A stretch of 5,176 nt of DNA from a virus: the UHGV virus genome UHGV-0438775; one strand, written 5' to 3'. Shown here piece after piece: positions 1 through 4,939 of this stretch. The position numbers and the translations under genes are program-made. A model generated the notes under the pieces. The model saw only the letters and a program-made list of their open reading frames with translations, had not been told where the DNA came from and did not search any database. Within the stretch, counting starts at the first letter, position 1. Each line of letters starts with the position of its first letter.

Positions 1-47
1 TCCGGCACCGGCTGAGACTGGTACGGCTCCAGTAGCCGACTAATTTA

Positions 48-155
48 AACAAGTGTGGGGGGGTTACACGGCTGTGAGCCCCCCCTCACCTCTTTTGAGG
101 TGGGGGGCGTAAGCCGTGTAATAGCCTAGGGCGCCCCCCTCCACTTGTTTTTATT
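48..155 (+). terminator. GC-rich compound hairpin (outer imperfect palindrome enclosing an inner G/C-run hairpin) followed by a T-tract; candidate intrinsic terminator and/or cruciform structural element
   Basis: The outer arm 64-73 (ttacacggct) pairs perfectly with 112-121 (agccgtgtaa). The G7 run at 57-63 pairs with the C6T run at 134-140, and caagtg at 50-55 pairs with cacttg at 142-147. The inner hairpin has C-run/tcacctc (79-92) paired with gaggtg/G-run (97-107) around a TTTT loop. It is immediately followed by tttttatt (148-155). Local GC is about 60%, against about 40% for the rest of the window. Confidence 0.45.
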
Positions 156-166
156 ATGACAGTGGA

Positions 167-200
167 TGGCGATTACCTATTACTTGACATGTAATCGCCA
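167..200 (+). promoter_or_regulatory. Perfect 10-bp-stem hairpin whose 14-nt loop carries a phiX174-like nick-site motif (ACTTG/A); candidate rolling-circle (+) origin
   Basis: tggcgattac (167-176) is the exact reverse complement of gtaatcgcca (191-200). The loop ctattACTTGACATgtaat resembles the phiX174 ori core AACTTG^ATATTAATAAC (ACTTGA.AT then TAAT). It lies about 140 nt upstream of the Rep gene. Confidence 0.35.
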
Positions 201-204
201 AGTG

Positions 205-232
205 ACACCACGATACAAATACATAGTGGTGT
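205..232 (+). repeat. Second stem-loop (7-bp stem acaccac/gtggtgt with a 14-nt loop) immediately downstream of the candidate ori hairpin
   Basis: acaccac at 205-211 pairs with gtggtgt at 226-232, and the loop is gatacaaatacata. Together with the 167-200 hairpin it forms a tandem stem-loop pair, each with a 14-nt loop. Confidence 0.3.
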
Positions 233-301: not shown

Positions 302-340
302 AGCCTGCTTTTGGACTAAACTTATATATCATTCTAGTAA

Positions 341-1279
341 ATGCAGTGTGTTAATCAAATACAAGTATTGAACCCAAAGACGGGTAAATTTATAAAAGTC
401 CCTTGCGGTACTTGTTACGCTTGTCAAAGCAACAAACGGTCATCTTGGATGTTTCGTAATACAGTTGAACTACAATATTCACAGAGTGCGTTCTTTTGTA
501 CCCTCACGTACAATGATACTGCGCTGATGGGTCTTCCGTATCACGGTACATCTAATTTGCGAATGCCCTTGAAATATCATTATCAACGCTGGTTGAAACG
601 TCTTCGCAAGGCGTTACAGCCTGCCAAGGTTCGGTATTTCTTATGCCACGAATATGGTGACGAATCGTTCCGCCCTCATTATCATGCTTTGCTATATCTA
701 GATACTGATATATCTCTTACAGATATGCGTTGTCTTATATCTGATACTTGGAGGTATGGTAATATAACCTGCGATTTTGTCTCTCCTGCTCGTATACATT
801 ATCTGACTAAGTACGTGACTAAACAGTTTCGTAACGTCAAAAGCTCTGGACGGTCTGTAGATTATATATTTAACCATACTTGGGATAATAGAGATTTACA
901 GCATCGCTATATAGTTGAGTACTACCTTAAGAAGTTTTCTTTTGTTGTAGCTAGTCAAGGCTTAGGTTGTCAGCTCCTGCGTGAGCCTGCTTTTATACGT
1001 TGGTTTTGGGATCACCTCATAGTTGGTGAATCCTATCCGAATTATGTTATTGGAGGACGCTCGTTTGCTCTACCTCGTATATACCTGCGTAAGTTGGTAC
1101 CCGAGTTGTGGAGAGATGAGATTTCCCCCGATATATCGCCCGAGGCTTATTCAGCCCGATTATCTGATCTTGCGTCTGACGCTAATCTCACCGTAAAACA
1201 GTATATAGAAAATGCGCGCTATATACAAGACAGAAAGTCTCAAATCATCCGCGCTAATAACAAAAAATCCCCTTTGTAA
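341..1279 (+). CDS. VP4: Microviridae VP4 replication initiator (rolling-circle Rep, HUH endonuclease superfamily)
   Basis: The 312-aa ORF begins at the first ATG after an in-frame TAA (338-340). An N-terminal Cys cluster PCGTCYAC (aa 21-28) is typical of gokushovirus VP4. RCR motif I is FCTLTY (nt 494-511). Motif II is the HUH triad RPHYHALLY (nt 671-697). Motif III is YLTKYVTK (nt 800-823), with the catalytic Tyr pair YxxKY. The gene sits upstream of the structural genes, as in Gokushovirinae. Confidence 0.9.
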   Translation: MQCVNQIQVLNPKTGKFIKVPCGTCYACQSNKRSSWMFRNTVELQYSQSAFFCTLTYNDTALMGLPYHGTSNLRMPLKYHYQRWLKRLRKALQPAKVRYFLCHEYGDESFRPHYHALLYLDTDISLTDMRCLISDTWRYGNITCDFVSPARIHYLTKYVTKQFRNVKSSGRSVDYIFNHTWDNRDLQHRYIVEYYLKKFSFVVASQGLGCQLLREPAFIRWFWDHLIVGESYPNYVIGGRSFALPRIYLRKLVPELWRDEISPDISPEAYSARLSDLASDANLTVKQYIENARYIQDRKSQIIRANNKKSPL

Positions 1280-1416: not shown

Positions 1417-1815
1417 ATGGAAACTTGTAAGTATAGAAATAACCCGTTTAATATACGGTATAATGCTTCCAATAATTGGAAAGGTCAAACAGAACCTAAG
1501 AACGGATTCTGTCAGTTCTCAGAATTGAAGTACGGTGTTCGTGCTGCTTTCCTGCTTGTCTTTAACTATCGTAATTTGCACGATGCGACTACTCCACGTG
1601 ATATAATACGATATTGGGCGCCAAAGGAAGACGGTAATGATACGTCTGCTTATATAAACTTTGTCGGACAGCTCATTAACGAAGATGAGCCAATAGATAC
1701 TACTTTGGAGTATCTGATTCTGCTTTATAGTATGTGGAAAGTAGAACAAGGATGGGTTCCCAGCCTTTGGGAGTTTGCTACACTTTTGAATGCGTCACTA
1801 ATAGAAGATCTATAA
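1417..1815 (+). CDS. Hypothetical protein, 132 aa, acidic, in the VP5 position between Rep and VP1 (function unknown)
   Basis: A clean ORF on the coding strand with tight spacing on both sides (6 nt upstream, 3 nt before the VP1 ATG). It has about 17 acidic and 12 basic residues, so it is not a basic DNA-binding protein of the J/VP8 type. It contains W/G/aromatic-rich segments (NPFNIRYNASNNWKG, GVRAAFLLVFNY) suggestive of a folded domain. It ends with a TAA and is in the same frame as VP1, separated from it only by TAA-ACT. Confidence 0.6.
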   Translation: METCKYRNNPFNIRYNASNNWKGQTEPKNGFCQFSELKYGVRAAFLLVFNYRNLHDATTPRDIIRYWAPKEDGNDTSAYINFVGQLINEDEPIDTTLEYLILLYSMWKVEQGWVPSLWEFATLLNASLIEDL

Positions 1816-1818
1816 ACT

Positions 1819-3720
1819 ATGCCAAATCTAACTAAGTATTCGCTTGACCACGAGGTTCGTTCAAGCTTTGAGATGGGTCAATTGATACCCTTTCTCTGCC
1901 AGGAAGTAGTTCCAGGTGATAAATACCGTGTGCAGTCTAGTACACTTGTGCGCCTACAGCCTATGTTATCGCCACTGATGCACCGCCTTGATTATTATCA
2001 GCGGTATTATTATGTGCCTTATAGGTTGCTTATACCTCACTATGAGCAATTACTTACCGATCCTGATAGTAAGTATGTAGTGCCATCTATGGATAAGTAT
2101 CTTCAGTTTAAGGCGAAGAAGTTTAAGGATTTGTTCGCTGAAAAACCACTGCTAGAATATTTTGGTCTTGCTACATCTAATGGCGAAGCCGATCCTACTA
2201 ATGTTCTTAAGGATCTTAACGCTACTCCCCTACTCGCTTATTACCTCATATATAATCACTATTATATGAGATCTGATCTAGACAAGCGATATGTTGACCA
2301 GCTTCGCCCAGAGAATTTTGAATCTGCTGAACTGCGCAAGTATATAGGCGATGTAATGAATGTCAATGAAGGACTTGACTATTTTACCAGCGCTAAGACC
2401 TCTACTCAGTATGGTAATATGGTGCAACTTGATATGAACGGTGATAATACTATTACTGTACCCGAGATGCGTCTTGCTGAGCGTCTGCAATCGTTTAGAG
2501 AGCGGTTACTGCGTGTTGGTGGTAAGTATGTGAATTATATTAAGGAGTTCTTCGGAGTTGAACCTTTGGACGCTAGAGTTCAAATTCCTAAGTATCTCGG
2601 TGGTGATTCATATGTCCTTAACGTCTCTGATGTTGACCAGACAGCTCCCTCAGATCTTGGTTCGGTTGGTGAGAGTTACGGTAAATCTGTATCGGTTAAT
2701 CGCACGGGTCAGATTCAGTACGATGTTTATGAGCATGGCTTAATTATTGGTCTTCACTTTGTGCGTCCTCGTCCGTCAAATATTGGTGGTTGCCCTAAGT
2801 TGTTTACCCGCCGTAATTACTTTGATTTCTTCAATCCTCATTTTTCGGCTCTTGGTTATCAAGAGATAGAGGGTCGTGAGTTGGACGTTACTCGCCCTAA
2901 AGATGAAGCGTTTGGATATGTTCCTAGATATGATGATTATAGATATGGTAATGATGTTGTTAGCGGTGATTTCCGTAGGTCTCTTAATTTCTGGCATTTG
3001 TCGCGAGATATATCCAAGGAGAGATTATCAGTTCCTTTCGTGACTTGCCGTCCAGATCCTCGTATATTTAGTTATGAGGGTGAGAACGGTAGAGTTGAGT
3101 TATATTTCTTCTCAGCTGAAGCGGATCGTTTTTTGAAGAACGGTGGATCAAAACGTATTGTTTTAGAAGGTTTTCTTTGGATGCCCGTAAATTCTGTATC
3201 TGTCGGTTCTAAGGTTAAACTTGCGTCTTATATTCATACAAATATAGGTGATGCTTCTAAGGCTTATTTTGTTGATACAGTTGAGATTAAAAGTTTATTG
3301 CCTAGAGAATCTACCGCTATTTTACCTGTGATTGATATTAATCGGTCTGAGACTAAATTTGAGTATGCTCATGAACCCGTAGAATTGACTACTGTTGATA
3401 AGGTTTTTTCTATAGAGATAGGAGATGATGAATTTGTTTCTTCCGATGTGCTTGTAGCAACTTGTGGTGATAAGGTTGGTACATTTGTAATTTGTGATGT
3501 TAGACCTAAGGTAAAGGTACATCCTGGAGAATCTGCCGATGATTTTCAACAGATGTTGCAAGAGATTGATCAGTTGCGTGTTGTAGATGGTTGTGTTGCT
3601 GGCTTTGCTAGTTATCATAAATCTGGGCACCTAGAGAACAATCACGTGTTGTCAGTTACTTATAATAATGTTGACGTACTTCGTCCGCTGGCTCGTTATG
3701 ATGGTAATGTACTTAGATAG
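1819..3720 (+). CDS. VP1: Microviridae VP1 major capsid protein (F-like jelly-roll)
   Basis: The 633-aa ORF is the largest in the window. Its N-terminus, MPNLTKYSLDHEVRSSFEMGQLIPFLCQEVVPGDKY, matches the hallmark gokushovirus VP1 start (basic-Asn-x-Phe ... G-x-L-x-P ... VLPGD). Its length is in the VP1 range. It is followed 8 nt later by VP2. Confidence 0.92.
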   Translation: MPNLTKYSLDHEVRSSFEMGQLIPFLCQEVVPGDKYRVQSSTLVRLQPMLSPLMHRLDYYQRYYYVPYRLLIPHYEQLLTDPDSKYVVPSMDKYLQFKAKKFKDLFAEKPLLEYFGLATSNGEADPTNVLKDLNATPLLAYYLIYNHYYMRSDLDKRYVDQLRPENFESAELRKYIGDVMNVNEGLDYFTSAKTSTQYGNMVQLDMNGDNTITVPEMRLAERLQSFRERLLRVGGKYVNYIKEFFGVEPLDARVQIPKYLGGDSYVLNVSDVDQTAPSDLGSVGESYGKSVSVNRTGQIQYDVYEHGLIIGLHFVRPRPSNIGGCPKLFTRRNYFDFFNPHFSALGYQEIEGRELDVTRPKDEAFGYVPRYDDYRYGNDVVSGDFRRSLNFWHLSRDISKERLSVPFVTCRPDPRIFSYEGENGRVELYFFSAEADRFLKNGGSKRIVLEGFLWMPVNSVSVGSKVKLASYIHTNIGDASKAYFVDTVEIKSLLPRESTAILPVIDINRSETKFEYAHEPVELTTVDKVFSIEIGDDEFVSSDVLVATCGDKVGTFVICDVRPKVKVHPGESADDFQQMLQEIDQLRVVDGCVAGFASYHKSGHLENNHVLSVTYNNVDVLRPLARYDGNVLR

Positions 3721-3728
3721 TTATAGCT

Positions 3729-4763
3729 ATGGATCCCGTAACAATTGCAGGTCTTGCAGGTGCAGGCGCTAGCCTCTTCGGTGGTCTCGTTAATAATGCT
3801 TGGGCAGATGCCCGTAGTGATAAACAATGGCATCGCACTTTGTACATGCAGGACAAAATGAATGCTTATAATGCGCCCGTTGCTCAGATGGAGCGACTTG
3901 CACAAGCTGGATTAAATCCTAATCTTGTGTACGGTAATGGCGGTAGCGTTATACAGTCCGCTGGCGGTAATGCTCCGAATCCTCCTAATACTGCTCCTAT
4001 TGATACGCAGGGAGTGTTACAGATGGTGCAGACTGTTGTAAACGGTATGCTTGAAAAGGATAAGATTCAGGCTGAAAAGGAGATTTCAGAAGCTAAGAAT
4101 ACCACGACTAAAGAGGTTACTCAGATGCAGAATACGACTTCGGAGCGTAATGTTGATGTTACTACTCAGTCTAATGAAAAGGTTGCTACTGAACGTAATG
4201 AGACTGAAAAGGAGATTAACAAAGATCGGATTCAGTCTAACGAAAAGATTGCTTCTGAGAATCGTGCTGAGAATGCTCGTCAGTTTGATTTGTCGTTTGC
4301 TCATCAAGTTTCTGTTGATAATGCTCGTATCGCAATTGATCGGAGCTTAGCTAATTCTACTATTGCTCTGCATTCTTCTCAGATTCGGTTGAACAATTTG
4401 TCTGCTAATCTTCAAGAAGCTATACAGCCGTATTTGGTTGATAAATCTAAGTATGAGGCATTGTCTTTGGCTTTTTCGTATGGTAATGATAGGCTTAATC
4501 AGTTTTTATCTTTACCACAGTATATTGGAGAAGGTGAATTAGGTGCTGTTTTTGATGAGGCTGGTTTGCCTCGTCCTGCTGGTTATCAGCTTAAGATGAT
4601 AGCAGATTTTCATAATCAACAGTTTGAGCTATGGAAGAAAGTTGGTGAAGCAGATTATGAGCGTGCTGATGCTGCTGCTTGGTATGCTGGTTGGAATGCT
4701 TTCTTTGGCGCTGCTTCTGGTCCGTTTAAGATGGGTATTACAGCTGCTTCAATTATTAAATGA
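3729..4763 (+). CDS. VP2: Microviridae VP2 minor capsid / DNA pilot protein
   Basis: This 344-aa ORF lies directly after VP1. It has a Gly/Ala-rich N-terminus (IAGLAGAGASLFGG) and the conserved pilot-protein block NAYNAPVAQMERLAQAGLNPNLVYG (NSP..Q..R.K.AGLNP.L.YG type). The central region is a low-complexity E/K/N/T-rich predicted coiled-coil with an internal duplication. The C-terminus is Ala/Gly/Trp-rich. Confidence 0.85.
   Translation: MDPVTIAGLAGAGASLFGGLVNNAWADARSDKQWHRTLYMQDKMNAYNAPVAQMERLAQAGLNPNLVYGNGGSVIQSAGGNAPNPPNTAPIDTQGVLQMVQTVVNGMLEKDKIQAEKEISEAKNTTTKEVTQMQNTTSERNVDVTTQSNEKVATERNETEKEINKDRIQSNEKIASENRAENARQFDLSFAHQVSVDNARIAIDRSLANSTIALHSSQIRLNNLSANLQEAIQPYLVDKSKYEALSLAFSYGNDRLNQFLSLPQYIGEGELGAVFDEAGLPRPAGYQLKMIADFHNQQFELWKKVGEADYERADAAAWYAGWNAFFGAASGPFKMGITAASIIK
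4069..4281 (+). repeat. Internal imperfect direct duplication within the VP2 coiled-coil region
   Basis: ctgaaaaggagatt occurs exactly at 4070-4083 and at 4202-4215, 132 nt (44 codons) apart. cagtctaatgaaaaggttgctactgaacgtaatgag (4157-4192) is repeated imperfectly as cagtctaacgaaaagattgcttctgagaatcgtgctgag (4231-4269). At the protein level, AEKEIS...QSNEKVATERNE is followed by TEKEIN...QSNEKIASENRAEN. Confidence 0.55.
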
Positions 4764-4801: not shown

Positions 4802-4939
4802 ATGAATTTAATGCATTTGTTGACTTACGTCGTTATGGTTGCTATGTTCGTTGGTGCTATATGGGTTATTGCGACATTGACCCTTAGTATAATTCGAAAG
4901 ATACGTAACTTCAATAATCATGGAAAAACGAAAATATAA
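4802..4939 (+). CDS. Small single-pass membrane protein, 45 aa (N-terminal TM helix plus basic C-terminal tail); candidate lysis protein (amurin-like)
   Basis: This ORF is not in the supplied track. ATG is at 4802-4804 and TAA at 4937-4939. The translation is MNLMHLLTYVVMVAMFVGAIWVIATLTLSIIRKIRNFNNHGKTKI. It has about 24 hydrophobic residues and then an R/K-rich tail, the same layout as phiX174 E (N-terminal TMD, basic C-terminus). It fills the VP2-VP3 gap and overlaps the VP3 start by 20 nt. Its start context TATAGCTATG is a 10-mer identical to that of VP2 (3722-3731). Confidence 0.4.
   Translation: MNLMHLLTYVVMVAMFVGAIWVIATLTLSIIRKIRNFNNHGKTKI

Follow-up and report, generated by a model that had tools for sequence, protein, structure and literature searches.

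Does the hairpin at positions 167 to 200, which displays a phiX174-like cleavage motif in its loop, mark the place where replication of this phage starts? That an origin exists was to be expected; what makes the question testable is where exactly it lies, that it is conserved across the family and that two of its parts are homologous to the phiX174 origin. We regard 167-209 as very probably the viral (+) strand rolling-circle origin, presumably nicked between G186 and A187 by a two-tyrosine HUH Rep. The preliminary description of this DNA had put the hairpin forward as a candidate rolling-circle origin, and that suggestion is now supported by conservation, covariation, strand specificity, the fixed spacing of a downstream box and the match to the phiX174 core. 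As far as established, rolling-circle initiation in the Microviridae has been mapped only for phiX174-like phages; the searchable literature yielded neither a description of a hairpin origin or of a CTTG|AT plus TGACAC signature outside these phages, with mentions in subscription journals being possible, nor experimental cleavage data for microviruses other than Bullavirinae.

The window, i.e., the whole stretch of 5,176 nt that was analyzed, is a complete circular temperate microvirus genome, in which all genes of the open reading frame (ORF) listing lie on the + strand (Table 1). Since the last ORF spans the window ends, which are joined without a break in a related prophage, the sole long noncoding region is 44-340; it holds zero ORFs of at least 40 amino acids on the + strand, and the candidate origin hairpin falls inside it. 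An Rfam scan of the whole window at an E value of ≤1 matched no known RNA family. The phage had previously been described as gokushovirus-like, an assignment that was not borne out: it is a temperate Bacteroidales-type microvirus with integrase-less prophage relatives. As the closest prophage (L099, 87% Rep identity) moreover lies within an uncultured Porphyromonas assembly, the phage matches the Bacteroidales proviruses of Krupovic and Forterre 2011 (PMC3091885).

Table 1. Candidate origin elements and genes of the window, with the corresponding hairpins of other microviruses
Feature	Position in window	Strand	Details
5' arm, candidate origin hairpin	167-176	+	TGGCGATTAC; perfect complement of 191-200
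Loop with nick motif	177-190	+	CTATTACTTGACAT, 14 nt; predicted cleavage between G186 and A187
3' arm, candidate origin hairpin	191-200	+	GTAATCGCCA; sits where phiX174 has its AT-rich spacer
TGACACC box	203-209	+	17 nt 3' of predicted nick; candidate Rep-binding ("key") element
Second hairpin, inverted repeat I8	205-232	+	ACACCACGAT / ATAGTGGTGT; 5' arm overlaps TGACACC box
Rep gene	341-1279	+	312 aa; Pfam PF23343 REP_ORF2-G2P, E 8.5e-18
Small ORFs 3' of Rep	1282-1410 and 1417-1815	+	
Major capsid protein	1819-3720	+	Phage_F, E 5e-53
Pilot-like protein	3729-4763	+	
Small hydrophobic ORF	4802-4939	+	
99-codon ORF, last gene	start 4920, crosses window ends, stop codon 41-43	+	
Chp2 hairpin			ctagcgtataacag-TCTACTTGAT-ctgttatacgctag
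SpV4 hairpin			tggggcatat-ATTACTTGTTATA-atatgcccca
phiMH2K hairpin			agttcggctac-GGACCCTACTTGTTGTAA-gtagccgaact
Microvirus hairpin loop type			TACTTGATA

The perfect 10-bp stem is present at 167-200 exactly as the preliminary description had given it. Folded as single-stranded DNA, the segment takes up this hairpin as its structure of minimum energy (-9.5 kcal/mol), and none of 200 dinucleotide shuffles folds as well (mean, -2.96 kcal/mol; z = -3.94). Perfect 10-bp inverted repeats within 120 nt occur only twice in the window, as I7 (the candidate origin hairpin) and I5, and both lie inside the 44-340 intergenic region. The loop carries CTTG|AC at 183-188 on the + strand; position +1 is A, as in phiX174, and position +2 is C (ACTTG|AC), where 75 of the 82 regions compared have T and where relatives L010 and L099, unlike the window, read CTTG|AT. 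The resemblance of this loop to the phiX174 site was noted correctly, but by itself it proves nothing, because ACTTGA occurs in the window at chance frequency (4 observed versus 3.0 expected). This count is what one would expect if a chance palindrome enclosed a chance hexamer in AT-rich sequence, and for ACTTGA alone the concern that the similarity falls within chance is justified; the comparative data have to carry the argument.

The search for a conserved stem-loop with an ACTTGA-type loop among relatives gave a positive result that reaches far beyond close relatives, with a hairpin bearing a yCTTG|(A/T)T loop being present at Rep identities of 94%, 56 to 63% and about 30%. Close relatives at the 78 to 94% genome level retain the hairpin, and five GenBank genomes recovered from samples of human gut and vagina (78 to 86% identity) keep both the hairpin and ACTTGA, although relatives at 78 to 86% are not discriminating because the whole of 160-340 is nearly invariant there. 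An intermediate comparison set was formed by Rep homologues at 56 to 63% identity (L011 to L014). In L014, the hairpin is AGCGATTAC-CTATACTTGATAT-GTAATCGCT, in which the basal pair of the stem has switched from G:C to A:T by compensatory substitution, and its loop reads ACTTGATAT, a 9/9 match with phiX174. The L013 hairpin, GCGGTTACAT-TACTTGAT-ATGTAACCGC, has arms GCGGTTAC/GTAACCGC with compensatory changes relative to the window, while L011 and L012 have GCGGTT...TATACTTGATATTGT...AACCGC. For L004 (OP549878), GenBank carries a 64-aa hypothetical protein annotated across the origin hairpin (3369-3563); this annotation is probably spurious, and the window has no ORF of at least 40 aa at the matching position.

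The distant set was obtained by a Rep-profile scan of IMG/VR, which gave 80 genomes with roughly 27 to 38% Rep identity, comprising fewer independent lineages than genomes because many of them share the stem family agcactaata. Nearly all of the 80 have one strong perfect hairpin of 7 to 16 bp on the coding strand, with loops of the type yCTTGAT(A) or, in some lineages, CTTGTT, and with stems that are unrelated between lineages (e.g., agcactaata, ccgcatata, gcacagttac and gggcccattac). The classical gokushoviruses Chp2, SpV4 and phiMH2K also carry the hairpin, phiMH2K with CTTG|TT and without the TGACAC box. Among 12 GenBank microviruses picked at even steps down the VP1 similarity ranking, the full signature was found in 9, a CTTG hairpin with a different downstream sequence in 2 and nothing detectable in 1. 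The predicted nick lies outside any ORF of at least 60 aa in 69 of 82 genomes. Some contigs hold two origin-type hairpins each, namely, L077 (2008-2042 and 6672-6708), L018 (30-61 and 4623-4654) and L110 (109 and 5603); the pairs of L018 and L110 look like the terminal redundancy of circular assemblies, and L077, which is 7.3 kb long and has two different hairpins, is possibly a chimeric or dimeric assembly.

These observations were condensed into a combined rule that requires three features: a stem with 7 or more bp and no mismatch, a CTTG[AT] located within the loop or on its border, and, at +17 or +18 from the nick, TGA[CT]A. Applied to 101 microvirus genomes, including Chp2 and SpV4, the rule identified sites on the coding strand of 85 genomes (89 sites) and on the opposite strand of 3, while none of 505 mononucleotide shuffles (5 per genome) gave a match; in the window there is exactly one, on the + strand. 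It is this comparison, and not the hexamer, that is decisive: the combined signature does not fall within chance, and, with the fold z of -3.9 and the extensive covariation pointing the same way, a coincidence of palindrome and hexamer can be set aside as exceedingly improbable. About 15% of the genomes fail the strict rule, among them phiMH2K, which is without the TGACAC box, and L104, in which no origin signature was detected. The strand preference is also evident from the loops themselves, in which CTTGAT is the commonest hexamer (75 of 1,050 hairpins) and ACTTGA occurs 41 times versus 5 for its reverse complement, TCAAGT. As a separate observation on strand usage, the coding (packaged) strand of 82 microvirus genomes has 565 CTTG[AT] sites, about 2.5 times fewer than the 1,395 of the complementary strand; either spurious Rep sites are selected against, or the difference may just follow from strand composition.

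Stems differ between lineages, while loop motif and spacing stay constant. Because loop lengths vary, a MAFFT alignment of the origin regions leaves the 5' arms out of register; covariation was therefore tabulated on hairpins defined in each sequence and indexed from the nick, a table that is fitted to the structure by construction and for which the stem-length distribution at other CTTG[AT] sites serves as the independent control. The 70 distinct hairpins comprise 53 different 5' arms, and each of the stem columns from +3 to +16 shows three to four Watson-Crick pair types. In the control, stems flanking the other CTTG[AT] sites of the same genomes are mostly 3 to 5 bp long, compared with 7 to 16 bp at the candidate origins. 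The invariance of CTTG in the sequence logo is likewise due to construction, because hairpins were chosen for having CTTG; no such condition was set on box, spacing or stems, apart from the box deciding between candidate hairpins that tied.

With the regions aligned on the predicted nick, i.e., after CTTG, 78 of 82 distinct regions have TGACAC(C/T) beginning at +17 (70 regions) or +18 (8 regions), irrespective of stem and loop length, against a background frequency of TGACA of 0.00086 per nt. The box is a candidate Rep-binding element. Beside the origin hairpin, a reading of the window sequence showed a single TGACACC box and an inverted copy in the 3' arm of the 205-232 hairpin. This second hairpin is kept in close relatives and, with a different sequence, also in L014; a comparable box-containing hairpin was predicted in 23 to 35 of 74 other origins, being frequent and not universal.

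The window also encodes an enzyme of the appropriate kind. Judged by its sequence, the Rep protein is a two-tyrosine HUH endonuclease expected to nick the origin, and H113, H115, Y154 and Y158 (YLTKYVTK) are invariant in 27 homologues. Pfam detected no helicase domain in it. At its N terminus, C22, G23, C25 and C28 (PCGxCxxC; window 404-424) are invariant in 27 homologues at 26 to 63% identity; this may be a metal-binding motif, and the region could be the one that reads the TGACAC box.

The following sequence of events can be proposed: (i) the 10-bp inverted repeat of the supercoiled, double-stranded replicative form would extrude as a putative cruciform, or the duplex would melt locally, exposing the loop as single-stranded DNA; (ii) Rep would dock on or near the TGACACC box and cut the + strand 17 nt 5' of this box, between G186 and A187 (ACTTG^ACAT), a nick position predicted by homology; (iii) Y154 or Y158 would form a link with the 5' phosphate, leaving the 3'-OH of G186 to prime the host polymerase; and (iv) after one round, the second tyrosine would cut the regenerated site, and the displaced strand would be sealed into a circle for packaging. 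This cut-and-seal scheme would be that of phiX174 protein A, with the site presented in a hairpin.

A stable, noncoding hairpin on the packaged strand would also suit a complementary (-) strand origin, recognized by host primase, RNA polymerase or the PriA primosome, and negative-strand initiation was in fact raised for conserved hairpins of very small microviruses by Olo Ndela et al. 2022 (PMC9865509), who, in the passages dealing with these hairpins, did not commit themselves and stated that the role could not be certified. We consider this reading unlikely for several reasons: (i) if the host read these hairpins as priming sites, a common loop motif and +17 box would be unexpected in phages of unrelated hosts, and the known or inferred hosts here range from Chlamydia and Spiroplasma to Bacteroidales, with marine samples in addition; (ii) the shared loop motif is the cleavage site of phiX174 Rep, and phiX174 has its (-) origin on another hairpin, which is located in an intergenic region of its own (PMC9865509; bioRxiv 10.64898/2026.07.25.740675); and (iii) the GC-rich structure next to the hairpin in the window (47-150) suits this role better. 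A dual role of the hairpin, as both (+) and (-) origin, is possible.

That adjacent element is a large, GC-rich, multibranch structure just 5' of the candidate origin hairpin, with an outer stem 47-57/141-150, inner stems 64-73/112-121 and additional helices between G runs and C runs. The region 40-345 folds at -61.8 kcal/mol (z, -8.1). Among eight close relatives, compensatory changes affect 15 of 41 predicted pairs. The 47-150 structure has no Rfam match and is a candidate for a complementary-strand origin, a terminator or a packaging element.

The position of the hairpin could instead point to regulation or packaging. In the window's clade, it lies between the last ORF and Rep, 141 nt 5' of the Rep start codon, where it might act as an operator for Rep autoregulation, as a terminator after the last gene (stop codon at 41-43) or as a packaging signal. 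The earlier characterization of the element as upstream of Rep holds for the window, but it is not general: the hairpin is found 150 to 340 nt upstream of Rep in the window's clade, Chp2 and phiMH2K, whereas in a group of 4.2-kb IMG/VR genomes with agcactaata-type stems it lies 400 to 600 nt downstream of Rep and is thus not tied to the Rep promoter. A terminator would not keep its loop sequence and the +17 box while the stem drifts; moreover, there is no T run 3' of the stem, and a terminator scan of the window gave only 74-89. A regulatory or packaging function as the explanation of the hairpin is therefore very unlikely.

Since relatives of the phage are integrated in Bacteroidales genomes without an integrase, and dif-like sites have been proposed for such proviruses (Krupovic and Forterre 2011; PMC3091885), an attachment site, either a dif-like XerC/D target or a site of Rep-mediated integration, had to be considered as well. 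The prophage junctions speak so clearly against it that we give this reading next to no credence. In the L099 prophage, which comprises 5,186 bp on a contig of uncultured Porphyromonas sp. UMGS166, the hairpin is intact and internal (12013-12043), and the junctions consist of 23-bp direct repeats, ACTAAACAT(AA/TT)AACTCATTCTGA, at 6975-6997 and 12161-12183, which correspond to window 315-337 (ACTAAACTTATATATCATTCTAG), some 130 nt 3' of the nick. By eye, the repeat's left half is similar to the XerD arm of E. coli dif. A scan of genome contigs gave one locus only. The hairpin is also intact in the prophages L011 to L013. As the direct repeats do not coincide with the hairpin, junction mapping excludes the latter as a dif-like attP. 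The repeats flanking the L099 prophage indicate instead that the phage is temperate, with its attP immediately 5' of the Rep start codon.

Several further observations concern integration. The IMG/VR contig L015 (86% Rep identity) has unrelated, GC-richer sequence upstream of Rep (1-640); it departs from the window at the prophage junction point (window position ~315), ends before the hairpin and is probably an integrated copy with host flank. The prophages at 56 to 63% Rep identity adjoin DUF4301, an HTH_3 gene and RlmN (L011, 4541-6001 and 10695-11437; L012; L013, 5000-6756). In L013, the phage is inverted with respect to the HTH and DUF4301 genes, and L011 has a degenerate copy of the 5' end of the HTH gene (5811-5900 versus 5232-5330) just 5' of Rep. 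A palindrome at 281-300 (CTTGATAGTTAAGATTATCAAAG), whose arms are conserved and whose center is variable in relatives, was entertained as the dif-like site and dropped, the actual direct repeats being at window 315-337; a second CTTGAT is present in it, but this one is part of the stem and has no box at +17.

With 167-209 taken as the viral-strand origin, the replication start of these phages becomes directly testable, given a predicted nick at G186/A187 and a candidate Rep box. The non-phiX174 remainder of the Microviridae is the far larger and more abundant part of the family, and for about 85% of the diverse microviruses tested, a simple sequence rule picks out a single site in the genome. 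Such an origin offers genome annotation a natural zero point and vector engineering a cis-element, and in temperate members it is set apart from the dif-like integration site. A broader proposition, which we hold to be somewhat better than evenly balanced, is that the ancestral origin of all Microviridae was the hairpin with yCTTG^(A/T)T and a TGACAC box exactly 17 nt downstream; the origin in phiX174 gene A, which lacks a hairpin, would then be a derived remnant, in which the nick core and GAC at +18 have been kept. If this is true, origin and nick site could be predicted for thousands of uncultivated microviruses (gokushoviruses, gut and marine), and a cassette of about 45 nt together with Rep should suffice for replicons or phagemids, e.g., for Bacteroidales hosts.

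CRESS-DNA viruses carry a nonanucleotide in a hairpin loop, accompanied by iterons, and stem-loop origins are also found in rolling-circle plasmids (double-strand origins). The window element is like these in having a nick motif in the loop of an inverted repeat beside a presumptive Rep-binding sequence and in combining a variable stem with a conserved loop motif; it is unlike them in its loop motif, its two-tyrosine Rep and, as far as a reading of the sequence shows, its single box at +17 in place of iterons. Of the features of hairpin-loop origins, it shows a stem with compensatory changes, a nick motif in the loop on one strand and an HUH endonuclease of its own with the tyrosines. Closer at hand, conserved noncoding hairpins near Rep with compensatory substitutions have been described in reekeekee- and roodoodoo-microviruses, the loop being identical in wastewater reekeekeeviruses (Olo Ndela et al. 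2022; PMC9865509); the passages describing them report no phiX174-like nick motif, and our comparison is with these descriptions only.

The comparison with phiX174 is the most detailed. In that phage, cleavage takes place between G4305 and A4306, with Tyr343 and Tyr347 as the catalytic residues, and a 2026 saturation-mutagenesis preprint reports detrimental effects of synonymous changes in gene A codons 107 to 115, which colocalize with ori+ (bioRxiv 10.64898/2026.07.25.740675). The GenBank record annotates the origin at 4306 within gene A, inside CAACTTGATATTAATAACACTATAGACCAC, and this stretch is unfolded (z, -0.31), confirming the previous statement that the phiX174 site lies inside gene A and is not in a hairpin. 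The two origins thus differ in layout: that of phiX174 is located in gene A and has no hairpin, whereas that of the window is intergenic and has its predicted nick in a loop of 14 nt, with the AT-rich spacer replaced by the 3' arm of the 10-bp stem, so that an unstructured 30-nt origin with an AT-rich spacer inside the Rep gene is not what the window has. Since phiX174 works without a hairpin, the stem may be unneeded for catalysis. The downstream boxes also differ, being TGACACC in the window and AGACCAC in phiX174. On the other hand, the initiators of both are homologous HUH Reps with two tyrosines spaced YxxxY, and the nick cores, all on the viral strand, read CAACTTG^ATA in phiX174, TACTTG^ACA in the window and TACTTG^ATA in most relatives. 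Furthermore, GAC stands at +18 to +20 from the nick in phiX174 and the window alike, as G204-A205-C206 in the window, counted from the predicted nick, and as 4323-4325 in phiX174, which is codon D115 when gene A is numbered from its start and lies close to the right end of the 30-nt origin. With the nick core and the +18 GAC present in both, the window element matches the phiX174 origin in two parts and in the spacing between them.
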